In this document: one piece after another, positions 2,841 through 36,203 of the stretch
Numbering within the stretch: the stretch's first letter is position 1
How the letters are laid out: each line of letters opens with the position of its first letter
Source of the DNA: a virus
DNA: 64,000 bases
Virus record (IMG/VR): IMGVR_UViG_2802429139_000001
Reading direction: 5' to 3' (one strand)
The notes under the pieces: generated by a model
Seen by the model: the letters and a program-made list of their open reading frames with translations, nothing else
What the model was told of the DNA's origin: nothing
Database searches by the model: none
Position numbers and translations under genes: made by a program

Positions 2841-3209
2841 TCATCGCTTGCCTCTCCAGCGGCGCACCGTCATGCGGTCGACGCGTGCTGCGCGCTGTGC
2901 GCCATGCTCGCTCAATCCGTCTTCCATCGACAGCAGCGCCACGACGCGCGCGACGGCCATGCCCATGTCGGCGCGGCTCCGCGCGCGCTCCAGCGCTTGC
3001 CCCGCGTCTTCTAGTGTCAGCTCTTCCGCGAGGTACCGCGCCGCGGCCATCATCGCGGCGTCGCGCATCGGATACTCGGCAGGGTCGGCGTAGCGTTCGA
3101 CCAGATCGTTGAACGTGTCCGCGAAACGCACCGACGCTGCGCGAGACAGCTTGAAACCGTTCTCGCGTAGCCATCCGGTCGCGTTGGTGGGAGCTGTTGC
3201 CATGGTCAT
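2841..3209 (-). CDS. Hypothetical protein (122 aa)
   Basis: GGAGGA RBS before ATG at 3209; GC3-rich frame; ends at TGA 2841..2843, with an open coding-like continuation downstream. Confidence 0.6.
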   Translation of the reverse strand: MTMATAPTNATGWLRENGFKLSRAASVRFADTFNDLVERYADPAEYPMRDAAMMAAARYLAEELTLEDAGQALERARSRADMGMAVARVVALLSMEDGLSEHGAQRAARVDRMTVRRWRGKR

Positions 3210-3266
3210 GAAGTGTCCTCCAGTTGTCACCTTCTAGTCTAGTGACGCGGCCGGTAGTCCAAGCTA

Positions 3267-4064
3267 CTAGCGCGGCAAACCTAGAGGGTCTACCGAATCA
3301 ATCGGACGGTCCATCGCCGCGGTTAGGCCAGCGCGCGCGCCCTGTTTGAATCCGTCGTCACTGAACTGATCCACCATCGTGTTGACCGCATCCGGATACG
3401 CATCTCGCATCGCGTCGCGAGCGCGCTCACGGTCCGACTTGTACAGCGCGACCACGCCAGCCTTGTTGGCCGCATCACCTTCCTGCTGTTTGATGCGCTC
3501 AGCGATCGACGCTGCGAACCCAATGAGCCAGGATTGACGGTAGACGTGCAGCGATTGCGGCGCTCGCTTATCGCGCGTCATCTGCACCAGGTGGTCCAAC
3601 CGCTCTGCCCGATTCATGGCCGCCCACTCATCCACGGTGGCCGTACGGAACGTCTCTCGTTTCGGCATCTCCACTTTGGCGACCAAGCGTGTCGCCTGTG
3701 GTTGCAATATCTCCCAGAGCATCCTCAGGCGTTCGACATGGTGAGACATGCCGAACACGTGCACGAGCGGCATGTTATTGAGACCAACGGTCTTGCAGTG
3801 CAGCGCCTCCGCGAGGATGGACAGCATGTGTTTCTGCTCGGCCTGATAGGGACCGCGCACCAGTAGCAGCGTGTCGATGGCGTTCGGGATGTCGCTGATG
3901 TCGAGACCGCGCTGGTGTGCGCGCACAGTCGCCAGATCGATGCCGTGTTTGGCGAGCAGCGCGAAGGCGCGTTCCTGAAATGCCTCCTCCTCGGGCGTCC
4001 CAGTCACATCCTCGGCCTGTCGCAACAGCTTTGCGATCTTGTCAACGATCCTGTCGTCAGTCAT
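3267..4064 (-). CDS. DUF2786-like protein (265 aa)
   Basis: N-terminal KIAKLLRQAEDVTGTPEEEAFQERAFALLAKHGIDL resembles DUF2786 signature. Confidence 0.65.
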   Translation of the reverse strand: MTDDRIVDKIAKLLRQAEDVTGTPEEEAFQERAFALLAKHGIDLATVRAHQRGLDISDIPNAIDTLLLVRGPYQAEQKHMLSILAEALHCKTVGLNNMPLVHVFGMSHHVERLRMLWEILQPQATRLVAKVEMPKRETFRTATVDEWAAMNRAERLDHLVQMTRDKRAPQSLHVYRQSWLIGFAASIAERIKQQEGDAANKAGVVALYKSDRERARDAMRDAYPDAVNTMVDQFSDDGFKQGARAGLTAAMDRPIDSVDPLGLPR

Positions 4065-4184
4065 GGGTGTCCCCTGATGTCGCGTTGTCTTGGTAGTTCA
4101 TTCTACCAAAATACTAGTAGACCTCTCTACCATTGTGCTACGGTCGATTGGTCTACCAAACAACGGACGAAAGGGCTGCTGCTC
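4065..4184. promoter_or_regulatory. Divergent promoter/operator region with three palindromes (TTGGTAGTTCATTCTACCAA 4090..4108; GTAGACCTCTCTAC 4116..4134; TTGGTCTACCAA 4149..4160)
   Basis: Half-site TTGGTAGAC / GTCTACCAA recurs here and at 400..509. Confidence 0.55.
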
Positions 4185-4388
4185 ATGGCCAAGAGGGTTT
4201 GGATCGATAACGGCGGAATGGTCACCTGCGACGAGCACTCGGGTATGTACATGCGTTTCGCCATCAAGGAGCGGCCCAGCGCGAAGCGGCACACCACACC
4301 TCTTGGTGTGTACGTCGCAGATGAGTCCGGAAAGTACGAGTGCGAAACTTGCGTCCCCTTCCACACGAGGAACCCAAATGCCCAGTAA
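4185..4388 (+). CDS. Small Zn-ribbon-like protein (67 aa; CDEH...CETC)
   Basis: AAAGGG RBS; stop overlaps start of next gene by 11 nt (translational coupling). Confidence 0.55.
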   Translation: MAKRVWIDNGGMVTCDEHSGMYMRFAIKERPSAKRHTTPLGVYVADESGKYECETCVPFHTRNPNAQ

Positions 4389-5400
4389 ATGGTCCAACGT
4401 GCTCCGCGGTGTCGCCTTTGGCGACGCGTGGGGCTACCGCAATGAATTCAGGTCGTACGCTCAGCTCACCCAGCACGGTCTCATGGGTCCTGCGCTGCCT
4501 GAGAAGCTGATCATCAGTGACGACACTCAGATGACGCTCGCGCTCGCGCGCGCTCTGCGCGGTGCGAGCGACAAGACTGACAGTGAGATCCGTGCCGACG
4601 TGCTTACGGAGTGGGTCAACTGGTACGGCGACCCTGACAACAACCGCGCACCTGGCAATACCTGCATGCGCGCGATCGACGCCATCAAGCAAGGTGCGCA
4701 CTGGCTAGACGCTGTGGTAGCCGACTCTGATGGTTGCGGAACCGTGATGCGTGTCAGCCCAGCGGCGCTCGTGAACAGTGAATTCCATAGCTGGCAAGGC
4801 ATTTCGACCTGGCAGGCTCTCACAACGCATGGATCACCGACAGGCGCGGCGGCATCACTGGTGGGTGCTGCCCTGATTCGGCTAGCACCCATGCCTGGCG
4901 ACACCGTGAACTACGCGCTGGACCTCACGCTTGAGGCTGTCGGCGATCCTGATGATCTGCTGCTGCATGGACTCGACGAGTGGATCGTCGAGAATGGCGA
5001 CTACTACGGTCCGGCTTATCAAGAGGGTGCACGTCGATTCATCACGCGCGGAATGCTGAATCTCGCGCACACGTTGGTAGACGCGGACATTGCGCTGAGA
5101 AACATTCGCGCGAAGGATCTAGATCCCTGGGACCTAGATCCGTGCGAGCTGGCAGGTCCGGGATGGCGTGCGCACCATGCGCTTTCAACCGCGCTGCTGT
5201 GCGTCGACCTTTTCCCGGAAGATCCGATCTCCGCGCTACGTCGCGCGACGGTCACCAGTGGAGACAGTGACTCGATCGCTGCGGTCGCTGGGGCCGTCCT
5301 CGGTGCGATCCATCCTGACCCCTGGCCTGACGGTTGGTTCGATCGACTGGAAACGCGCTACCAGAAAGAGATTTCAGAGGCAGAAGGGTTTGGGTTCTGA
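4378..5400 (+). CDS. ADP-ribosylglycohydrolase (DraG/ARH family)
   Basis: GVAFGDAWG, SDDTQM, C-terminal TSGDSDSIAAVAGAVLGA signatures of the ARH family. Confidence 0.85.
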   Translation: MPSKWSNVLRGVAFGDAWGYRNEFRSYAQLTQHGLMGPALPEKLIISDDTQMTLALARALRGASDKTDSEIRADVLTEWVNWYGDPDNNRAPGNTCMRAIDAIKQGAHWLDAVVADSDGCGTVMRVSPAALVNSEFHSWQGISTWQALTTHGSPTGAAASLVGAALIRLAPMPGDTVNYALDLTLEAVGDPDDLLLHGLDEWIVENGDYYGPAYQEGARRFITRGMLNLAHTLVDADIALRNIRAKDLDPWDLDPCELAGPGWRAHHALSTALLCVDLFPEDPISALRRATVTSGDSDSIAAVAGAVLGAIHPDPWPDGWFDRLETRYQKEISEAEGFGF

Positions 5401-5678
5401 TGATCCATGCAGATCACGACAGCGAACCGTACAAACACGGCTACGACGACGGCAAGAAGATGGCGCCGTTCGTGAAAAAGTTCCCAGCATGCGTGTCCAT
5501 CCCTATGCGGTGGTCAGCAGATCCGGGACCGAAGCGGTCTGACGGATGGCCTGAGGCTGCTCACGCGTATGCCGAAGGCGTGCAAGATGGTTGGACCGAC
5601 AACTACACACCAGAACCGGGAGGGCGTCTGATCTCCGACATCACAACCGAATTGGACACCGAGGAGAAGGGCACATGA
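5400..5678 (+). CDS. Hypothetical protein (92 aa), third gene of ARH operon
   Basis: ATGA overlap with ARH stop; GC3-rich. Confidence 0.5.
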   Translation: MIHADHDSEPYKHGYDDGKKMAPFVKKFPACVSIPMRWSADPGPKRSDGWPEAAHAYAEGVQDGWTDNYTPEPGGRLISDITTELDTEEKGT

Positions 5679-5753
5679 GCATTGAGAATGAGCTACTGAG
5701 CAAGACGGCCAAACAGATTCACGACGGCCAGATCACAAGACCGTAGAACACAA

Positions 5754-5803
5754 AAGAAAACGCCCCCAACCGCAACTGAATGCGGTTGGGGGCGTTTCTC
5801 TTT
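5754..5803. terminator. Bidirectional intrinsic terminator (AAAA-CGCCCCCAACCGCA...TGCGGTTGGGGGCG-TTTCTCTTT)
   Basis: 14-bp stem flanked by A-run and T-run between convergent genes. Confidence 0.7.
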
Positions 5804-5869
5804 GGCCCTGGCGGGAGCGCTTGCACCTGGTTCACCGGACAGGCGCGAGTGCTACGACCGCCAGGGGCT

Positions 5870-7042
5870 TTACGCCGGTTCGGTATGGCGAATCGGCTGA
5901 ATCATCTGAATCGTCTCGCCTGCAAGCGGGTTGGCCAGCAAGTCATCGGCCTCGACAACATCGGGCGCGAACATCAACCCGCGCAGACCACCTTGCAGGC
6001 CGATGGTCACCTTCTCGCTGTCGAGTGCGTTGAGGCTGTCCATGAGGTACACGGGGTTCAGCCAGATAGTCTCGGCGTCGCCGGTGAGCTGTACATCCAC
6101 GTCTTCGTTGACGGTGCCGATCGACGTGCTCGCGTAGACGTTCAGGCCACCCTCACCGAATGTGAGCTTCATCCGCGGATGGTTCTCAGCCGACGTGCCG
6201 GTGACGGCCAGCGCGCGCGTGACAGCCTCGATGATCTCGGGGACCACGACCGTTGCCGTCGTCAGGTATTGCTTCGGCAGTGCGCCGCGGCAATTCGGGA
6301 ACTTGTCATCGACCAGGCGCGTGGTCATGCGCCGAGTGCCGCCATGGATGCCGAGAAGCTGTGCGTTGCTTTCGGTTCCGCTGACGGCGAGATACACCTG
6401 ATCGTCACCGAGCCGGCCGATCTCGGCCAGTGCGCGAGTCGGGATCAGTAAGTGTTGCCCAATGGACGGGTCAGCCAGTGGCGTCCAGTCGATCTCGCGC
6501 ATGGCGATCCGGTGACCGTTGGTCGTGGTCAGCGTCAGCGTGGTCTCACTGGTGATCTCCAGTTGCACGCACATCTGACCAGGCTTGGCCTCGTCGGTGC
6601 TGGCCGCGCCGATCACCTGCGTGACGGCGTGACTGAACTCGTCGGCGCTAACGGTGCCGGTGTCATCCGGCAGCGCCGGGAGCACCGGGTACTGGTCGGC
6701 GATCATCGTCGGCAGCGTGAAGTCCACCTTGCCGCACTGGATGGCCACGGTCGAACCGTTGTCGGTCCAGGTGATCGGCTTGCGTGGCAGCACCTTGGCG
6801 ATCGTTGCCAGTAGCCGCCCACTGACCAGCGAGCTACCCGGCGTCATCTGCTCGGCGTCGGGTAGTCCGATCTCGGCGCTCACGTCTAGGTCGAAGCTGC
6901 TCAGCGTCAACCCGAGCGGGCCCGCGGTGACCAGCATTCCCGCGAGAATCGGCGTCTGTGGCTTACCGGGGATGATGCGTGCGGCCCACGTGACCGCCTC
7001 TGTGAACGCGTCGCGGTCCATGGTGAATGAAAGGTCAGGCAT
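5870..7042 (-). CDS. dnaN: DNA polymerase III beta sliding clamp homolog (DnaN-like)
   Basis: TTNGHRIAM, TRLVDDKFPNCRGALP, NPVYLMDSLNAL match conserved DnaN blocks. Confidence 0.8.
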   Translation of the reverse strand: MPDLSFTMDRDAFTEAVTWAARIIPGKPQTPILAGMLVTAGPLGLTLSSFDLDVSAEIGLPDAEQMTPGSSLVSGRLLATIAKVLPRKPITWTDNGSTVAIQCGKVDFTLPTMIADQYPVLPALPDDTGTVSADEFSHAVTQVIGAASTDEAKPGQMCVQLEITSETTLTLTTTNGHRIAMREIDWTPLADPSIGQHLLIPTRALAEIGRLGDDQVYLAVSGTESNAQLLGIHGGTRRMTTRLVDDKFPNCRGALPKQYLTTATVVVPEIIEAVTRALAVTGTSAENHPRMKLTFGEGGLNVYASTSIGTVNEDVDVQLTGDAETIWLNPVYLMDSLNALDSEKVTIGLQGGLRGLMFAPDVVEADDLLANPLAGETIQMIQPIRHTEPA

Positions 7043-7087
7043 CTCTACTCCAAGGCTCTGGTGAGGGGTCTCAGAGCTGAATGTATC

Positions 7088-7101
7088 CCGGTAGTTGACA
7101 G
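7088..7101. promoter_or_regulatory. Copy 1 of CCTGGTAGTTGA(TAC) upstream motif, ahead of DnaN start
   Basis: Shared motif with 40399..40414, 48425..48441, 51067..51082. Confidence 0.4.
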
Positions 7102-29059: not shown

Positions 29060-29428
29060 TTAAATATTGGCGTTAAGCTCGATCGAAGAATCTTCGATGT
29101 CCGAGAGATTCGTCGTCGTCAACGTGCCGTCTTCATTCCACTCTGCACGCATCTGCTCGAAGGCGTCTTTCGCGGCACTCCCCTGCTGCAGCTCGCGACG
29201 AATTGACAGCGCGACGTACGCGTAAAGCATCTCGTCGCCATCTGCCACGTGCAGCAGACCACAAGCGTCTTCGTCGTTTGTCCAGAGTCGCCCCACTGGG
29301 TGTTCCAGCCCTGGGTCCTGGAACAGGTCCACGTAGCGTCCAGCGCCAATGCGCGCGCCGGGGTAATCCGGCTGGCTATAGAACGTGCCCAGCTCGGCGC
29401 TGATGATGTCGTATACGCCGTTGGGCAA
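29060..29428 (-). CDS. Hypothetical acidic protein, candidate immunity partner of upstream toxin-like domains
   Basis: Immediately downstream of MuF-toxin gene and ahead of terminator. Confidence 0.5.
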   Translation of the reverse strand: MPNGVYDIISAELGTFYSQPDYPGARIGAGRYVDLFQDPGLEHPVGRLWTNDEDACGLLHVADGDEMLYAYVALSIRRELQQGSAAKDAFEQMRAEWNEDGTLTTTNLSDIEDSSIELNANI

Positions 29429-29447: not shown

Positions 29448-32400
29448 TTAGACAGGTTGATCCACCACCTCCACGATCACGTCAACCTTGAACTGTGACG
29501 ACCCGGTTGACTTGCGCACTTCCAGCACCTTCATCTTCTGATTACGAGGAAGGATAACCTCGCGCTCGTGGGTTCCGACGGAGGTCAGTTGATCCATTCC
29601 ATCCGGTGTGCCTGACACGAAGATGCCGCGCTGACCGGGCTTCATCTTGTAGAGCACGCGAACCGGGTTGTGGAATGCCGGTGTGGTGGTGATTGACGTA
29701 GACAGGAAGGACTTGGACACGTACGTCTCACCCTCTAGCACCTTGAGCGCGTCGATGTCAGCGCCGAAACTGAACTTCATTCCCAGACTGTTCTCGTCGT
29801 TGAACTCGACAGCGTGCGTACCGCGGCTGAGCACGATGTGCTCCTCAAACGGATTGTGCTCGTAGAAAGCCGAATCGAGCGCCTTGGTTTTGGCTGACGG
29901 CACCTTGTCTTCGCGAGCGTGCGCGTTCATTGTGCTGTAGCCGCTGCCGGTGTACGACTTGATGGCGCTGTGCTGGTTGGATTTCCAAGCCGAGGCATTC
30001 TGTGGCGACATCAGCGAGCCGAACTGCTGCCACTCAACTGCCTTGCCGCTGGCATCGAAAACGTGCGGGTTGTCGGCAGACCCGACGGGAGCCTTGGAGT
30101 CGGCGATAACCGTCTTGCCGAGCTTGGTCAGCTCGCCAGCGGGCTGCTCATGTTCGGGTGTGTACTTCGTACCCTGTTTGATGACGACAGGTTTCGGCTG
30201 TTCTTTGATCTTGGAGTTACCCTGGGCTTTGAGCTTGTCTAGCGCCTTCTTGGCCATGTCGTCGCCGAGTGCGTCACCGTACTTGCCGAGCCATTTGGTC
30301 TGGACCCCAACGTCGTAGTAGCCCAACAGGTTCGCCAACTGATCGGTAGTGAGCGCCGCGATGCCGAACTCTTTGTCGAATTCGGGGATGGCCTCGGAGA
30401 GCTTGATACCCTTCTCGACCGCGTACGCCTTGACGGGCTGGAAGAACCCGCCAGAGCCGGCGTTCTTCAGGAACTCCTGTTCCCATTCGAGGATCTTGGC
30501 CGACTTCGTCGGATTGTTTGTAACGGGCTGCGCCACAGCTGGTGTCGCGTTACCGTTCTTCATCTGCCAGTACTGCGCGGGGGTCATCTTCGACAGTTGG
30601 GCGAAGTTGGCGGTGTCGCCCTTCTTCTTCGCCACGTACTTGGCCGACGCGAGCGCCTTGCCCGCCTTCTTCAGCACGTCCCCGTCTAGGATCGGAGTCG
30701 GCCCGGTCGGTATCGGAGACGGTGGCAGGAAATCGCCCTGGGTTATGTTCAGCCCCGGGGGCACGGTAATGACCTCACCCTTGACTTTGGTGTTCGTCAG
30801 ACGCTTCTCGACTGCCTTGATGTAATAGGAGCTCAGATCAGTTGCAAGACTGTTCTTTCGGGCAACAACTGCATCCAGGAACGCGTCAACATTGTTCGTC
30901 GCAATGTTGCCGTTCGCCTCGGCCAACAGCTTTCCCTGTTTGACTGCACCTTCGGCATAGGGCCGAAATAGATTGCGGATCTCCTTGTCTGGGATCGCTT
31001 GCAGACCTTGGATATAACTCGCTAGTTCGTCGCCCGAGGGATTGAGCAACTTACCGGGCTTGCCTTCGGCATACTGCCGAAACAGCGTGTTGTAGATGGG
31101 TTCTGGCGTGCCGTGCTTGACGTTGGGGTGGTAGTTCCAGTCCAGCGTGTCACCGCTGAAATACTTGAACGCTTGACCCTTGTCGATGCCGACGATCTCG
31201 CCGCCACCAGTGCGAATGAACTGTCCGGCGTGGCTGTCGTGGTTACCCATTAACCAGTCGAGCGCGTGATGCTTCTGGATGGTCAACAGATCGGCTTCAC
31301 TGATTGTGGACAGATCAACCCCAGATGGGAAGGCGCTCTTGCTGCCAGGAAACATGTACTGGACGGACTGGCGCTTACCGCCTACCGTCATGATGTACAT
31401 CGCTGGTGTCGTCAAGCCCGACTTCGCTTGCAGCTCAGCAGATGCCGCATCCAGCGTGACCAGGAATTGATCATTCGGATTCTTGGGACCCTTGACCAGC
31501 CACTTCTGAGACTGCGAGTCGGTGTACACCGTGGCGCCGTGCGTGCCGAGTACCTGACCGGTGCTGGCGAGCACGTTCGGTGAATCCGTCAGCTCGCCAA
31601 CGACGACCTTCGGCTTGGTCGCGGTGGATACCGTGCCGACTCCGGCGGTCGGCGCTGTCTCTGGCGTGGTGACCTTGGCGGTGGCCGTCGTCGTGGCCTT
31701 GGATGCGTTGCCGCCCTTGGATTGCGCGTACTCCGCGGGCGTCATCTTGGCCAGTGCGTTGTACTTGGCGGTGTCGCCCTTCTTTTTGGCCGCATGCTTG
31801 GCCGCCGCGAGTGCTTTAGCCGCCTTCTTGAGATCGACGTTCGCGGCCGCGTTGGCCATTGCGGTGACCTTCGCGGATGCCTTGGCTGCCGCGGCTGCCA
31901 TCTCAAGCAATGTCTGCTGTTCGTTGTAGACCTGCTCGGCCTTGAGCCACGCGACGGTATTGGCGGCGGCCTTCTTGTTGGCCACATACTTGGCCTGCGC
32001 TGCGGCCTTGGCCTTCTTCTTGGTGAAGTCCTTCTCAGCGACGAGCCACGCCGTCGCGTCGGTCTGGTACTGCTGCTCGGCCGCGAGCCATTCGGCAGTC
32101 GCCTTCTTCTTGGCGACGTACTTGGCCTGCGCTGCGGCCTTGGCCTTCTTCTTGGTGAAGTCCTTCTCAGCGACGAGCCACGTGGTCACGTCCGCCTGGT
32201 GCTGTTTCTCAGCGTCAAGCCACTTGGCGAGGTCCGCCGGTGCCGGTGACTTCTTGGTAGACATCGCTACCAGTGTTGGCCCGCTGCCTGACGCGGCCAG
32301 TTCGTTGGCCCGCATTTTCGACAGGACCGCGTTGAGCGTCGGCTTGATCTGCTCAGCTTCGAGCTGCTTGACCGTTTCGATGTACTCGGCGTCCCAGTCC

Positions 32401-32990
32401 TGGTAGTACCCCGGACGCTGGAACTTGAGCTTTCCGCGGGCGACGGCTGGCACGCAATGGCAGTTGTCATGACCCGCTTGCGCCGCGTGAGCGCTGCGGT
32501 AGACCGCTCCGCGGGTGGCCATCACTCGGCAGAACTCGCACGCTCCGGGCGACGCCAACCGCGAGTATTTGACTTTCTCGGTATCGGCGTTGCGCAGAAT
32601 CGTCGCGCGCGCGCCGTCGAACACCATGCGCTGTGCCGAACCCGTCAGCCTGGTCAGCGGATGGGCGGTGCCAGCGGCGCGGAACGCCCACTCAAGGGAG
32701 TTCATCATGCGGTCTTGCGACACCGCGTCGATCGCGGCTACCGCCTTGGGTGTGTACGGCTCATCGGGTGCCAGCTCGCCGTACCACTGATTGGCGACCT
32801 CGGATGCGGCCTCGACATAGGGCTGTACTACCTCGGGAAAGACTGCCTTGAATGCGTCCAGCAGGTCGGCAGCGGTAGCACCGTCGCTTTCGAGCTTCTT
32901 GTACAGGCCCACAAGGTCTTTGGTGGACAGCGTCGAAAGATCACCCAGGACGCTCTGGAGGGCTTGAGCCTGCTCAACCAGGCTGGCCAA
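29448..32990 (-). CDS. MuF-family minor capsid protein fused to internal repeats, a PI3/PI4-kinase-like domain and a C-terminal C3/VIP2-like ADP-ribosyltransferase domain
   Basis: N-term ACEFCRVMATRGAVY...HDNCHCVP (Phage_Mu_F); GNHDSHAGQF...VGIDKGQAF; YTGSGYSTMNAHAR, FLSTS, HEREVILP. Confidence 0.8.
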   Translation of the reverse strand: MASLVEQAQALQSVLGDLSTLSTKDLVGLYKKLESDGATAADLLDAFKAVFPEVVQPYVEAASEVANQWYGELAPDEPYTPKAVAAIDAVSQDRMMNSLEWAFRAAGTAHPLTRLTGSAQRMVFDGARATILRNADTEKVKYSRLASPGACEFCRVMATRGAVYRSAHAAQAGHDNCHCVPAVARGKLKFQRPGYYQDWDAEYIETVKQLEAEQIKPTLNAVLSKMRANELAASGSGPTLVAMSTKKSPAPADLAKWLDAEKQHQADVTTWLVAEKDFTKKKAKAAAQAKYVAKKKATAEWLAAEQQYQTDATAWLVAEKDFTKKKAKAAAQAKYVANKKAAANTVAWLKAEQVYNEQQTLLEMAAAAAKASAKVTAMANAAANVDLKKAAKALAAAKHAAKKKGDTAKYNALAKMTPAEYAQSKGGNASKATTTATAKVTTPETAPTAGVGTVSTATKPKVVVGELTDSPNVLASTGQVLGTHGATVYTDSQSQKWLVKGPKNPNDQFLVTLDAASAELQAKSGLTTPAMYIMTVGGKRQSVQYMFPGSKSAFPSGVDLSTISEADLLTIQKHHALDWLMGNHDSHAGQFIRTGGGEIVGIDKGQAFKYFSGDTLDWNYHPNVKHGTPEPIYNTLFRQYAEGKPGKLLNPSGDELASYIQGLQAIPDKEIRNLFRPYAEGAVKQGKLLAEANGNIATNNVDAFLDAVVARKNSLATDLSSYYIKAVEKRLTNTKVKGEVITVPPGLNITQGDFLPPSPIPTGPTPILDGDVLKKAGKALASAKYVAKKKGDTANFAQLSKMTPAQYWQMKNGNATPAVAQPVTNNPTKSAKILEWEQEFLKNAGSGGFFQPVKAYAVEKGIKLSEAIPEFDKEFGIAALTTDQLANLLGYYDVGVQTKWLGKYGDALGDDMAKKALDKLKAQGNSKIKEQPKPVVIKQGTKYTPEHEQPAGELTKLGKTVIADSKAPVGSADNPHVFDASGKAVEWQQFGSLMSPQNASAWKSNQHSAIKSYTGSGYSTMNAHAREDKVPSAKTKALDSAFYEHNPFEEHIVLSRGTHAVEFNDENSLGMKFSFGADIDALKVLEGETYVSKSFLSTSITTTPAFHNPVRVLYKMKPGQRGIFVSGTPDGMDQLTSVGTHEREVILPRNQKMKVLEVRKSTGSSQFKVDVIVEVVDQPV

Positions 32991-34464: not shown

Positions 34465-36203
34465 CCGAGCACTACCATCCTTCCCTGGCTAGATGAGTTG
34501 ACGCGTACGCCGATGCCTTGCGCGTAGCAGTCGAGCCGCCCCTTGTACGCCATGACTGCCGCGTATGCGGCGTCAATCTTGTTGGGGGACTCTGGATATG
34601 CCTTGTGGATCAGGTAGCCGCGGCTGGCGGCGCGTTTTCGTGCGTTGAGAATGTGTTGCGTCAGCGCGAGGTCTCCGCCGTGACTGACCGTGATGACGGA
34701 GTCCTCCGCGCCGGCATCCTGACCGGAGGTGACGACGGCGTGACGGAAGATCTCGACGTGCTCGACTACGTTGATGCCCTTGCCCTTCGGCCAGGCCATC
34801 ATCGGATTTTTGACGGAGCACTTGACCTTGAGCCGTCGCCCGAAGTCCTTTTCCCATGCCACAACCTGCTCAGTCCAGCCGGTTGGATCAGCGTTGAACG
34901 CGATGACTCGGAAGTCTGCGAACGTCTTCCGCACTGCTGCGTCCACCTCGTGAACCGGGGGTACCCAGTTCTTTTCGTGTTTCTCGGCCTGCCAGATGCC
35001 GATGGTGAACAGTCGGCCGTCGTGGATGCGGCAACCGATCAGCGCTGTGGCGTCTGCTTTTCCGCGCTGGCGGCCGCGTGAGCCGTCGAACCCGACCGCA
35101 ATGAAGTCGCCTGGCTTGATGGGGTTTGGGTCTGGCTTGTCTTCGGCACCAACGCGAATCGCACTCCACTCGATCTGGCTGATCCACTGGTCTGACGCGT
35201 GCGTGATCTGATTCAGGTAATACCGGCGCGCGTCCTGCGGGTCGGTATCGTCATCCCAATACTCTTGGATGATGCGGTCAAGGTTGACCCATCCACCGTT
35301 GTCGTCGGCTGACTCGCCGTACGACACCCGCAGTCCCTCGCGCAGCGAGTCGTAGTCGGACGGATCGGTTTCCGGTGGCGCTTCGCGGTGGTCGTAGTAG
35401 AGGCCACCGGGCACCCGGCCCTCACCCTGTGGGCGCTCCGCGCGGATGAGCTGCGCCTGATAGGTCTTCCAGGATCGCTCGGCGACCGTGTTCTCACCGG
35501 GCAGGAACGCGTTTGGGGTCTCGACAGAGCAGCCGTTGACCTTACCGAGGTTGCGGCGGATGGTCCCTGCCAACCGCAGACCGCCGTTGGTCTCGGTCCA
35601 GCTCTCGGTCTGATCCATGGCGGTGAAAACGGGCCGGAAACCTTCACGGCTGATTCCGGCTGACGTGACGGCCTCGATTCGGCCACGTGGAACAGTGATG
35701 AACGTTTCCATCGGGTCAACGTCGTAGTCATCGAGCAGCCGATCACTGCTGCGCACCATGTCGAGGCAGGGGTCCCAGGTGTTGGCGGTCTGATCTTCTG
35801 AGACTGCGATGATTTGGACCTTCGGCTTGATGCCGAGATCGACCCAGGGGCGTCCTACGGGTTGACCATCAGCGTCCCAGCCGTCCATGACCACATCGCC
35901 AATTGCCTCGACGATGCACAGCGCGGCCACCAGCGGCGACTTACCCCAACCTTTGGGCCGGGAAAGTACCGCGCGGCGGATCAGCCGGCCGTTGTTCATC
36001 GCTCGGCCGACGATCGCGGTCCCAGGCTTGAACAGTGGGTCCACTTCATAGAGCCGAGCGACGAAATGCGCCTGTTCCGGCGTGAAGATCAGCGGCTCAC
36101 CCAGGCTTGGGCCGTCAACGACTTGGAGGTACTCGGTTATCCAGTCGAGTACGGCCCAGCCGAGCGTGGGGCGCTCACCGGGGACCGTTGGCTTCCAGGG
36201 CAA
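34461..36203 (-). CDS. Terminase large subunit
   Basis: ATPase and nuclease regions; upstream of portal. Confidence 0.9.
   Translation of the reverse strand: MPWKPTVPGERPTLGWAVLDWITEYLQVVDGPSLGEPLIFTPEQAHFVARLYEVDPLFKPGTAIVGRAMNNGRLIRRAVLSRPKGWGKSPLVAALCIVEAIGDVVMDGWDADGQPVGRPWVDLGIKPKVQIIAVSEDQTANTWDPCLDMVRSSDRLLDDYDVDPMETFITVPRGRIEAVTSAGISREGFRPVFTAMDQTESWTETNGGLRLAGTIRRNLGKVNGCSVETPNAFLPGENTVAERSWKTYQAQLIRAERPQGEGRVPGGLYYDHREAPPETDPSDYDSLREGLRVSYGESADDNGGWVNLDRIIQEYWDDDTDPQDARRYYLNQITHASDQWISQIEWSAIRVGAEDKPDPNPIKPGDFIAVGFDGSRGRQRGKADATALIGCRIHDGRLFTIGIWQAEKHEKNWVPPVHEVDAAVRKTFADFRVIAFNADPTGWTEQVVAWEKDFGRRLKVKCSVKNPMMAWPKGKGINVVEHVEIFRHAVVTSGQDAGAEDSVITVSHGGDLALTQHILNARKRAASRGYLIHKAYPESPNKIDAAYAAVMAYKGRLDCYAQGIGVRVNSSSQGRMVVLG

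Follow-up and report, generated by a model that had tools for sequence, protein, structure and literature searches.

The ADP-ribosylhydrolase (ARH) gp84 (4378..5400, plus strand; 340 aa) most likely strips protein-linked, and probably arginine-linked, ADP-ribose that is added by ADP-ribosyltransferases (ARTs) of the R-S-ExE type, a reading that we favor with moderate confidence. The ARTs in question would be those forming the C-terminus of large, usually head-module, actinobacteriophage proteins, here gp53. The window analyzed, a stretch of 64,000 nucleotides, is the reverse complement of Mycobacterium phage prophiFSIL01-1, a Mycobacterium abscessus prophage of cluster MabR, for which GenBank BK061311.1 already labels the gene “ADP-ribosyl glycohydrolase” with hypothetical proteins on both sides.

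The ARH gene lies in a plus-strand operon with small ORFs. It is preceded by gp85 (4185..4388), an ATG...TAA ORF for a 67-aa Cys/His protein, which overlaps it by 11 nt, with a GAGGAA Shine-Dalgarno sequence 6 nt 5' of the ARH start, and is followed by gp83 (5400..5678; 92 aa), where stop and start overlap by 1 nt in the TGATGA at 5398-5403. The overlaps among these ORFs had been described in the original prediction, and both the coordinates and the TGATGA matched. Behind gp83, and overlapping its end by ATGA, is a 23-aa ORF (5675..5746, plus strand) that is absent from the annotation; it has a strong Shine-Dalgarno sequence (GAGGAGAAGGG) and is not conserved, so that we list it as tentative. 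GC3 exceeds GC2 in gp85, gp84 and gp83 alike, and all three ORFs look coding. A GC-rich hairpin with an 18-pair stem (5757..5798), T-rich on either side, is probably a bidirectional terminator, serving the ARH operon on one side and the convergent dnaN gene on the other.

Upstream, between gp86 and the ARH operon, three operator-like 16-bp palindromes with the consensus GGTAGA-N4-TCTACC occupy 4092-4107, 4116-4131 and 4142-4157, and a candidate extended -10 element (TGcTACGGT, ~4136-4144) abuts the third of these sites. Nine such palindromes with two mismatches or fewer are found in the window against 0.83 expected; six of the nine have at most one mismatch, and all but one of these six fall in two divergent promoter regions. 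Two further copies (400-415 and 492-507) lie upstream of the gp91/AAA-ATPase operon, whose McProf counterparts are the other lysogeny-expressed gene set (PMC9434293). The palindromes are conserved in McProf, FSAT, FVLQ and a sixth MabR-like prophage. The region 4092..4157 thus appears to be an operator-rich divergent promoter of the ARH operon, and the helix-turn-helix protein gp87 (2841..3230, minus strand), a divergent neighbor of the operon in 5/5 MabR prophages, is a candidate binder of the palindromes.

That gp84 is an ARH had been read from the motifs GVAFGDAWG, SDDTQM and SGDSDSIAAVAG, all of which are found in it, and the assignment is borne out by a match to Pfam PF03747 (159.2 bits against a gathering cut-off of 26.2, E=2.3e-46, profile positions 3-279 of 287) together with conserved catalytic and metal-binding residues. 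D16, E23, D48, D49, T50, D296 and D298 are invariant in alignments of 17 and of 40 homologues; the catalytic Glu23 and the metal ligands in two Asp/Thr motifs, D48-D49-T50 and D296-S-D298-S299, align with VEF, TDDTEM and GDADT of DraG. Judged by sequence, gp84 is a confident PF03747 member with a predicted intact active site. The AF2 model (pLDDT 94, pTM 0.94) has the all-alpha ARH fold, and in Foldseek it reaches TM scores of 0.67-0.70 to ARH3 and ARH1 and, against DraG, 0.61 when query-normalized and 0.71 when target-normalized; it also resembles the Listeria ART-ARH immunity protein 8za7. Because these structures rank nearly equal, the fold leaves arginine versus serine specificity unsettled.

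A sequence search against solved structures returned DraG as the best match of gp84 (7.5e-12) and Tri1 as the second (2.9e-9), both of them bacterial enzymes specific for arginine. Among the NCBIfam equivalogs, gp84 scores 51.6 bits against the DraG model TIGR02662, where the cut-off is 337, and 42.4 bits against the Tri1 model NF041672, where it is 490; in sequence it is therefore nearest to these two proteins and, as far as the profiles indicate, an equivalog of neither. Tri1 carries an N-terminal extension of roughly 60 residues that occludes the active site of Tre1. This extension is absent from gp84, whose residue 6 aligns to Tri1 residue 73, and only an enzymatic mode of action would therefore be expected.

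The presumed writer of the marks erased by gp84 is gp53 (29448..32990, minus strand), a minor capsid protein of the VG15/MuF type. The original prediction had placed an ART domain here, and it is genuine: PF25310 (VG15) matches at aa 7-203 and PF03496 at aa 1002-1171 (~nt 29478-29987), with the R (LSRGT), STS (FLSTS) and ExE (HEREV) motifs intact. The gene follows that for the portal, and gp54 (29060..29428, minus strand; 122 aa) sits 19 nt downstream, directly 3' of the ART gene. With an N-terminal head domain, a gene next to that for the portal, a C-terminal toxin domain and a small downstream ORF, gp53 has the predicted make-up of a MuF-family polymorphic toxin. The gp54 family (motif YPDYPG...GR...LWTNDxDG) follows the ART in MabR, Sixama and Cafasso phages, and also follows a closely related ART that forms the C-terminus of a 6,354-aa WXG100/T7SS polymorphic toxin of Mycolicibacterium, there with an 8-nt overlap. 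We consider gp54 a candidate for the dedicated, immunity-like gene of the gp53 toxin, with a product that may be a cognate immunity protein of the binding type. Since this gene adjoins the toxin, the ARH would be a second, enzymatic layer rather than “the” antidote. The T7SS toxin with the same ART and immunity cassette has no ARH within 10 kb; immunity to this toxin can therefore do without an ARH.

In prophiFSIL01-1 the ARH and ART genes are 25 kb apart on opposite strands, and the link between gp84 and gp53 consequently rests on co-occurrence rather than adjacency. Few phages carry this ARH subfamily (27 of 50,697 records), and the ART was found in 81 of the same records; 13 of the 27 ARH-positive records are also ART-positive (hypergeometric P ~3e-30, uncorrected for phylogeny). 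All five MabR prophages carry both the ARH and the MuF-ART, and an ART is present in at least four of six ARH-bearing phage lineages (MabR, the Cafasso group, Sixama/Forza and GMA2). The R-S-ExE ART found alongside the ARH forms the C-terminal part of a large protein, which in most cases belongs to the head module. Among IMG/VR loci, an ExE ART lies within 10 kb at 28 of 77 ARH loci, in several different architectures; at 22 of these 28 the ART ORF (1,440-1,710 aa in the complete cases) and the ARH share a strand, the former ending 0.45-1.5 kb upstream of the latter, so that adjacency is seen in at least 22 related metagenomic loci. The distant ARH loci (L064-L092) gave 0/29 with an ExE ART within that distance, in keeping with a link specific to this subfamily. 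Against the link, many ART-bearing phages are without ARH, for example those of cluster A with a “VIP2-like toxin”. For Phrappuccino/Settecandela and the Trina group no ART was found in the parts searched, which for Phrappuccino were six large structural proteins scanned with Pfam and for Trina a minor part of the genome. Phrappuccino gp57 carries a Zeta-toxin domain instead of an ART. Among the five MabR prophages, ARH similarity does not track ART similarity; such absence of co-variation is what a product-directed eraser would be expected to show, and hence is uninformative rather than positive evidence.

Taken together, the genes point to an ART-ARH genomic association of the Imm-ARG, Tri1 or BAH type. 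An antidote to the prophage's own ART, which the original prediction had offered as its second option, is accordingly the functional reading of that prediction that fares best, given the counts for MabR prophages, phage records and IMG/VR loci; what does not stand is a sole antidote, as gp54 is the immunity-like gene beside the toxin.

The Trina group would be compatible with a different substrate. There the ARH sits near NAD-salvage genes, the homologue of Rhodococcus phage Trina lying 5 kb from genes for nicotinamide phosphoribosyltransferase and ribose-phosphate pyrophosphokinase, and some members of the ARH family act on O-acetyl-ADP-ribose (PMC9503650). The enzyme might accordingly hydrolyze soluble derivatives such as O-acetyl-ADP-ribose, signaling nucleotides or ADPr-1''-phosphate instead of protein adducts. 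However, NAD-salvage genes are not annotated in prophiFSIL01-1, Iyer et al. argued that phage ARG domains prefer macromolecular conjugates (PMC9503650), and the close association with ExE ARTs, which modify proteins, argues for the contrary, so that we hold metabolite processing to be the least probable of the readings weighed here.

Expression data are available for McProf, whose ARH is 64% identical to gp84, and not for prophiFSIL01-1 itself: McProf gp86, which is the ARH, and gp85, encoded downstream of it, belong to the 16 genes expressed in lysogeny (PMC9434293, PMC8191103). This is not as expected of a purely lytic-cycle counter-defense gene, and it bears on the first suggestion of the original prediction, namely that the ARH reverses anti-phage ADP-ribosylation by host systems (DarT-, CmdT- or other ART-based) and thereby enables phage replication. 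Instead of belonging to an early lytic operon, the gene is part of the right arm, which is expressed in lysogeny, and in genome comparisons it goes most strongly with the phage's own ART and not with any host system. PADLOC gave no match for any protein of the operon, nor was there a match to an anti-defense family. The known erasers of DNA- and RNA-linked ADP-ribose are macro and NADAR domains. Erasers of the ARH or macro type are nevertheless plausible tools for such a purpose, and ADP-ribose-processing domains of phages are widely discussed in this sense (PMC9503650); moreover, divergence among the MabR ARH genes peaks in the central region, which probably faces the substrate (44-60% nucleotide identity, as opposed to 80-92% at the ends), as expected in a conflict. 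We found no specific support for counter-defense, however, and consider it unlikely.

Expression in the lysogen would also suit an enzyme that acts on endogenous ADP-ribosylation of the host, be it regulatory protein modification or small-molecule conjugates, and so shifts host physiology. McProf alters whiB7 expression and aminoglycoside resistance, with all 16 expressed genes listed as candidates (PMC8191103, PMC9434293), and an effect of this kind might feed into the stress and antibiotic phenotypes associated with McProf. Many actinobacterial chromosomes and mobile elements encode ARH homologues of ~40-50% identity with no ART nearby; bacterial homologues that are 50% identical lie in mycobacterial mobile-element-like regions with ParA/ParB, where no ART was found within 10 kb. 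Against such lysogenic conversion, no host writer has been named, the McProf authors favor a polymorphic toxin cassette, and the co-occurrence with the phage ART would be left unexplained; we judge it very unlikely.

The original prediction had further taken the tight coupling of the ARH to a “Zn-ribbon” partner as a sign of a regulated complex. The Cys/His pairs are there (C15-x2-H18 ... C53-x2-C56), and this CxxH...CxxC pattern is conserved in the three known copies of gp85, which are 97% identical. A search for its family in Pfam, PHROGs, NCBIfam and PADLOC gave no match, and the single-sequence AF2 model is of low confidence (pLDDT 55), with strands at 35-38, 41-45 and 51-56 and the first knuckle unmodelled. 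The Zn-ribbon is thus a pattern, and zinc binding is putative. That gp85 is a genuine gene, and a lineage-restricted near-orphan, is indicated by 4-6 synonymous and no non-synonymous differences over codons 1-60 in each pair among FSIL, McProf and FSAT, and by its distribution: it is present in three phage records, in 3/5 MabR prophages, and as a single cluster among 5.8 billion proteins. gp83 (motif EPY..GY...VS.P.RW..DPGPK..DGWPEAAHAY..G.QDGW) belongs to a small family, and two further MabR prophages carry homologues of 62-69% identity in the corresponding place; a full-library HMMER search yielded two genuine small homologues, besides two repetitive proteins that are probably spurious. It too occurs in 3/5 MabR prophages, a set that differs from that of gp85, and the two are found together only in FSIL01-1 and one close relative. 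The position of the 23-aa ORF is taken by different small ORFs in other MabR prophages.

An obligate unit of gp85, ARH and gp83, with the small proteins regulating or targeting the hydrolase, would be suggested by the overlapping stop and start codons throughout the operon and, in a few further lineages, by Cys/His-rich small proteins encoded right beside the ARH. Yet start/stop overlaps are normal in phage operons, and the Cys/His proteins of different lineages are not demonstrably homologous. The neighbors of ARH homologues in other lineages are unrelated to gp85 and gp83, and in the largest ARH group the adjacent proteins are unrelated and without Cys pairs. A two-knuckle Cys/His scan of small ORFs abutting ARH genes gave 4/79 against a background of 2.7%, which is not significant, and the scan was crude, missing some true cases owing to ambiguous ORF starts; the recurrence of Cys-rich neighbors is for these reasons anecdotal. 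Examples are Cafasso gp117, Phrappuccino gp192, FSQJ gp89 and a metagenomic locus (L034), and the Cafasso ARH itself carries a Cys/His-rich N-terminal extension. Because gp85 and gp83 are near-orphans that some MabR prophages lack, an obligate three-protein complex is not supported, and we regard it as highly improbable. The small ORFs, including that of 23 aa, instead appear to be co-transcribed, translationally coupled passengers, exchanged by recombination among MabR prophages and not required as partners of the ARH.

Returning to the erasure of gp53-type marks, we infer from the gene content the substrate and linkage of the ARH, the packaging and injection of gp53, a protective role and regulation by the HTH protein, which would combine as follows. 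Late in infection, gp53 would be made together with gp54, the small binding-type immunity protein; packaged into the particle, it would enter the next host with the DNA and ADP-ribosylate host targets. The ARH would be transcribed apart from the late genes, on the opposite strand, its promoter lying in the right arm expressed in lysogeny and being under operator control; it would erase these marks. In a lysogen it could guard the cell against gp53 that leaks or is induced, and against the ART that superinfecting relatives deliver, and it might let a cell entering lysogeny recover.

A broader version of this proposal, which we advance tentatively and think rather unlikely, is that the whole operon is a prophage-encoded anti-ART immunity island, the small ORFs being orphan immunity genes against other head-borne toxins. 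The island may be expressed in lysogens under its HTH neighbor through the shared GGTAGA-N4-TCTACC operators, and its ARH may (i) erase the marks of capsid-borne ARTs of superinfecting phages, and (ii) reset the cell after the phage's own toxin has been injected, permitting lysogeny. If true, injected MuF toxins and lysogen-expressed erasers would form a weapon and shield pair of phage-versus-phage conflict in mycobacteria.

Clinical M. abscessus frequently carries MabR prophages, and McProf alters tolerance to antibiotics; a link from the ARH to a head-borne ART supplies a concrete, testable function for one of the 16 lysogeny-expressed McProf genes. It also prompts one to ask how mycobacterial cells are affected by injected MuF-ART toxins, and whether the eraser serves lysogens in excluding related phages, a matter that bears on phage therapy of M. 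abscessus. The locus reveals no new kind of system, the toxin/eraser arrangement being already known, and the ART-ARH pairing recurs across many architectures in the comparative data.

Several described systems are instructive for comparison. In the host ARG-centered systems of Iyer et al. (2022; PMC9503650), an ARG under a negative transcription factor, with no adjacent writer, is proposed to erase the ADP-ribosylation of an invading phage; the HTH neighbor and operators of the prophage resemble this logic, while the Nudix/WYL sensors, phosphatases and chaperones of those systems are not seen in the gp84 cassette. DraG, the ADP-ribosyl-[dinitrogen reductase] glycohydrolase (PDB 2woc/2woe), is the best structure match and shares the Glu and the Asp/Thr metal motifs, but gp84 is ~40 residues longer with a variable helical insert, and no DraT/nitrogenase context was seen. 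In Tre1-Tri1 of the Serratia proteamaculans T6SS (PDB 6dre/6drh), an ARH-fold immunity enzyme counters an arginine-directed ART toxin, and Tri1 is the second-best match of gp84 both among solved structures and in NCBIfam; here, however, the roughly 60-residue extension is missing and delivery would be by the phage capsid rather than a T6SS. Imm-ARG (Imm-ADP-RGHD) proteins likewise have an active ARG domain, are strictly associated with R-S-E ART toxins, and are predicted to neutralize Tox-ART-RSE toxins by reversing the modification (Zhang et al., 2012; PMC3482391). That class is defined by adjacency to polymorphic toxins, whereas the association here is at the level of the genome, although the genes are adjacent in many related viral contigs.

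A close parallel is offered by a Bacteroides stercoris prophage, in which two proteins, Bsi as a binder and BAH as a hydrolase, neutralize the MuF-family toxin Bxa (PMC11699363). In both cases a MuF-type head-module protein carries a C-terminal ART, a small non-enzymatic candidate binder lies beside the toxin (gp54 here, Bsi there), and a separate ARH reverses the modification without binding the toxin (as predicted for gp84, and as BAH does). The two differ in that BAH and Bsi adjoin bxa, whereas gp84 is 25 kb off on the opposite strand with counterparts in McProf that are lysogeny-expressed; in host phylum; and in that BAH, compared here by its description, is ARH1-like and gp84 nearest in sequence to DraG and Tri1. 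The “binder plus eraser” logic of two immunities, experimentally shown only for Bacteroides Bxa, would thus extend to actinobacteriophages, and the pairing of gp84 with gp53 appears to fit the logic of ART toxin and enzymatic ARH immunity known from Imm-ARG, Tre1-Tri1 and Bxa-Bsi-BAH.

Reverse-complemented, the genome of prophiFSIL01-1 (BK061311.1), a Mycobacteroides abscessus prophage of cluster MabR, is 100% identical to window positions 3200-7100, the coordinates being related as BK061311.1 position = 62536 - window position. Its annotation names gp84 as ‘ADP-ribosyl glycohydrolase’ (ARH) and lists the neighbours gp85 and gp83 as hypothetical; the three genes lie in the right arm, with the lysis cassette and a DnaN-like clamp on one side and a WXG100/Tde-like polymorphic toxin cassette at attR on the other. 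The gene layout of the original prediction is borne out by the sequence, as are all the motifs quoted in it: gp85 (67 aa; 4185-4388, + strand, ATG to TAA) overlaps the ARH gene (4378-5400, +; GAGGAA 6 nt 5' of the ATG) by 11 nt, and the latter joins gp83 (92 aa; 5400-5678, +) through a TGATGA junction. All three appear to be coding: GC3 exceeds GC2 in each, pairwise comparisons of gp85 between the prophages FSIL01-1, McProf and FSAT01-1 reveal only synonymous differences in codons 1-60 (4-6 per comparison), with amino-acid changes confined to its end, where it runs into the start of the ARH gene, and the 92-aa ORF has syntenic homologues at 62-69% identity. An unannotated 23-aa ORF (5675-5746, +) follows with an ATGA overlap and a strong Shine-Dalgarno sequence (GAGGAGAAGGG), and an 18-pair hairpin at 5757-5798 probably acts as a terminator. 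The annotated gp82, a 35-aa ‘membrane protein’ at about 5719-5826 (-), runs opposite the 23-aa ORF and overlaps the terminator hairpin; no coding-like GC3 bias was seen in a roughly placed (1-nt offset) window, and gp82 may be a spurious gene call.

The assignment of gp84 as an ARH was upheld by its match to PF03747 (E=2.3e-46) and by a complete set of active-site residues, in which Glu23, D48-D49-T50 and D296-x-D298-S299 align with VEF, TDDTEM and GDADT of DraG. These residues are invariant in 17 and in 40 homologues, the most remote of which have about 30% identity. Since an alignment-based AlphaFold2 model (pLDDT 94) matches ARH3, ARH1, DraG and 8za7, a Listeria ‘ART-ARH toxin-immunity’ structure, about equally (TM 0.6-0.7), the fold does not discriminate between linkage specificities. 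By sequence, the closest characterised proteins are DraG and Tri1, both arginine-specific bacterial enzymes; gp84 belongs to neither equivalog, because it scores far under both cut-offs, and Tri1 has an N-terminal extension that is absent in gp84. The centre of the gene (nt 400-800, aa about 135-265) encodes a helical insert with lower pLDDT, and among the MabR ARH genes it retains 44-60% nucleotide identity versus 80-92% at the ends; a substrate-facing region under diversifying selection, or subject to recombination, could account for this.

A more variable picture emerges for the flanking genes. Within the phage collection the 67-aa protein is found in FSIL01-1, McProf and FSAT01-1 only, with one further MabR-like prophage in IMG/VR, and it forms one cluster among 5.8 billion proteins. 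The 92-aa protein occurs in FSIL01-1, FSQJ01-1, FVLQ01-1 and the IMG/VR relative that also has the 67-aa protein, with two small homologues elsewhere. McProf and FSAT01-1 carry an unrelated 144-146-aa protein (phrog_6045) 3' of the ARH, while 5' of it FVLQ01-1 has a Cys-free 45-aa protein and FSQJ01-1 different 67- and 44-aa proteins. As the small ORFs differ among the MabR prophages, the ARH is the constant element in a mosaic of neighbours, which argues against the proposed regulated complex of three proteins; the ‘Zn-ribbon’ label given to the 67-aa protein likewise found neither a family match nor a confident structure in its support. Cys/His-rich sequences adjoin ARHs in other lineages. 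In the Gordonia phage Cafasso (gp116-gp117; locus L019, 1872-3286) the ARH has an N-terminal extension of this kind (YCTYCDHRCF...TCQAGKDH), with a 68-aa six-Cys protein, gp117, ahead of it; Phrappuccino gp192 (L017, 5984-6142) is a 52-aa four-Cys protein just 3' of the ARH, and another such small protein or extension is present in L034. These showed no demonstrable homology, and in a crude scan their frequency was not above background, so that the recurrence of small metal-binding-like modules beside ARHs is anecdotal.

Expression in lysogeny is documented for a relative of the window prophage: RNA-seq of M. chelonae carrying McProf detected 16 expressed prophage genes (PMC9434293, PMC8191103), and the lysogeny-expressed genes common across MabR genomes include McProf gp85, gp86, gp91 and gp92 (PMC9434293). 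McProf gp86 is the ARH, and gp85 the gene 3' of it. In the window, three 16-bp palindromes, GGTAGA-N4-TCTACC (4092-4107, 4116-4131 and 4142-4157), lie in the presumed divergent promoter region common to the ARH operon and gp86, a DUF2786/DUF7168 protein, and two more (400-415 and 492-507), in a second such region, precede the gp91/AAA-ATPase operon. These are exactly the two promoter regions that match the McProf lysogeny-expressed gene sets. Allowing at most one mismatch, 64 kb contain six sites, five of them inside these regions; with up to two mismatches there are nine, against 0.83 expected. The palindromes are kept in five of six MabR-like prophages (that of the window, McProf, FSAT01-1, FVLQ01-1 and a sixth relative) and are absent in FSQJ01-1. 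The HTH protein gp87 (2841-3230, -), a divergently oriented neighbour of the ARH operon in each of the five MabR prophages, is the obvious candidate for a regulator acting through them. The AAA-ATPase of the lysogeny cassette, gp90 (845-2470, +), gave weak matches to the IetA/IteA anti-phage ATPases (PADLOC E=2.8e-5, far below any cut-off) and otherwise resembles a Cdc48/proteasomal-type AAA+ protein.

The ADP-ribosyltransferase (ART) domain reported at 29448-32990 (-) is indeed present, as the C-terminal PF03496 domain of gp53, whose N-terminus is a VG15/MuF-type minor capsid domain. All three of its motifs, R (LSRGT), STS (FLSTS) and ExE (HEREV), are intact. Arginine-directed transferases of the R-S-E clade typically have the ExE form, and together with the sequence neighbours of gp84 this motif points to arginine as the linkage that gp84 would cleave. 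Directly 3' of the ART gene lies gp54 (29060-29428, -; phrog_9543, no known function), with homologues in the same position in all five MabR prophages and in Sixama and Cafasso, which share the motif YPDYPG...GR...LWTNDxDG. In Mycolicibacterium sp. XJ870, a homologue with 52% identity (L102, 10001-10402) shares 8 nt with the 3' end of the gene for a 6,354-aa WXG100/SecA-domain T7SS polymorphic toxin, the C-terminal ART of which is clearly of the gp53 subfamily. One toxin domain and a small downstream gene on two unrelated delivery scaffolds is a hallmark of polymorphic toxin-immunity cassettes; on this recurrence, gp54 is very probably a binding-type cognate immunity protein of the gp53 ART, and its small family, which consistently follows this ART subfamily, probably forms a new group of immunity proteins against R-S-ExE ART toxins. 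In L103 and L104, orphan members adjoin a prophage integrase. In FSQJ01-1 the homologue is a single intact ORF (L098, about 2110-2515; BK061312.1, about 34488-34893) that the record splits into two short hypothetical genes, gp55 and gp56, placed in other frames or segments; this is likely an annotation error.

Among 50,697 phage records this ARH subfamily is rare, with matches in 27 records from six actinophage lineages, and the gp53 ART domain matches 81. Both occur in 13 records (hypergeometric P about 3e-30), including all five MabR prophages, four Cafasso-group Gordonia phages, Sixama and GMA2, and many ART-bearing phages have no ARH. Forza, a Sixama relative missed by tblastn, also has a head-module protein (1,017 aa) that ends in a PF03496 domain, and overall at least four of the six ARH lineages carry, besides the ARH, a large protein with a C-terminal ART. 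This protein is within the head module in Sixama and Forza, and apparently outside it in Cafasso. No ART was found among the proteins scanned of Phrappuccino (ARH, gp191), nor in the part of Trina searched. Phrappuccino gp57 (L016, 38600-41866), a 1,088-aa head-module protein with a C-terminal Zeta-toxin/AAA_33 kinase domain, is apparently another head-borne polymorphic toxin. The ARH of the Rhodococcus phage Trina (L020, 8184-15743) lies about 5 kb from genes for nicotinamide phosphoribosyltransferase and ribose-phosphate pyrophosphokinase (NAD+ salvage), which suggests a different, NAD-metabolism-linked role in that lineage.

In IMG/VR, 77 ARH loci were searched with a local HMM that was made from four ART domains and taken through one iteration, and 28 had an ART ORF within 10 kb of the ARH, in every case with the ExE motif. 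In 22 loci the ART-bearing ORF (1,440-1,710 aa where complete, some being truncated by contig ends) is encoded on the ARH strand and terminates 0.45-1.5 kb 5' of the ARH; the order in the main group is ART protein, 66-aa ORF, 108-130-aa ORF, roughly 150-aa ORF, ARH and a prohead-protease-like gene. Other placements are on the opposite strand at 3.6-4.3 kb and downstream at 4.7 kb, and a 345-kb (jumbo-phage-sized) contig has three tandem ART paralogues immediately 5' of the ARH (L060, 6014-9612). No ART was found in any of 29 loci with more distant ARHs (L064-L092).

The best-supported reading of the ARH is the known pairing of an ART toxin with enzymatic immunity by an ARH; the alternative of counter-defence against host systems was not supported. 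The co-occurrence of ART and ARH favours the suggestion that gp84 is an antidote to the prophage's own ART. Given gp54, and because no ARH lies within 10 kb of the XJ870 T7SS toxin gene, we regard the ARH as an additional layer rather than the essential antidote. Its placement would fit a role in shielding the lysogen, both from its own toxin upon induction and from an ART brought by superinfecting relatives, and may also fit the recovery of newly infected cells entering lysogeny. The gp84 gene is already annotated in GenBank and such pairings are known; the genome-level linkage of ART, ARH and gp54 in actinophages is useful rather than surprising. Enzymatic ARH immunity to an ART toxin has reportedly been shown for Tre1-Tri1. 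Imm-ARG was predicted as immunity to R-S-E toxins (PMC3482391), packaging of MuF toxins and their injection along with the DNA have been proposed (PMC5576092), and, as the most relevant precedent, the prophage MuF-family toxin Bxa is neutralised by the binder Bsi and the hydrolase BAH (PMC11699363). Here, by contrast, the eraser is located outside the head module, in a cassette under separate regulation; McProf expresses the corresponding genes in lysogeny.
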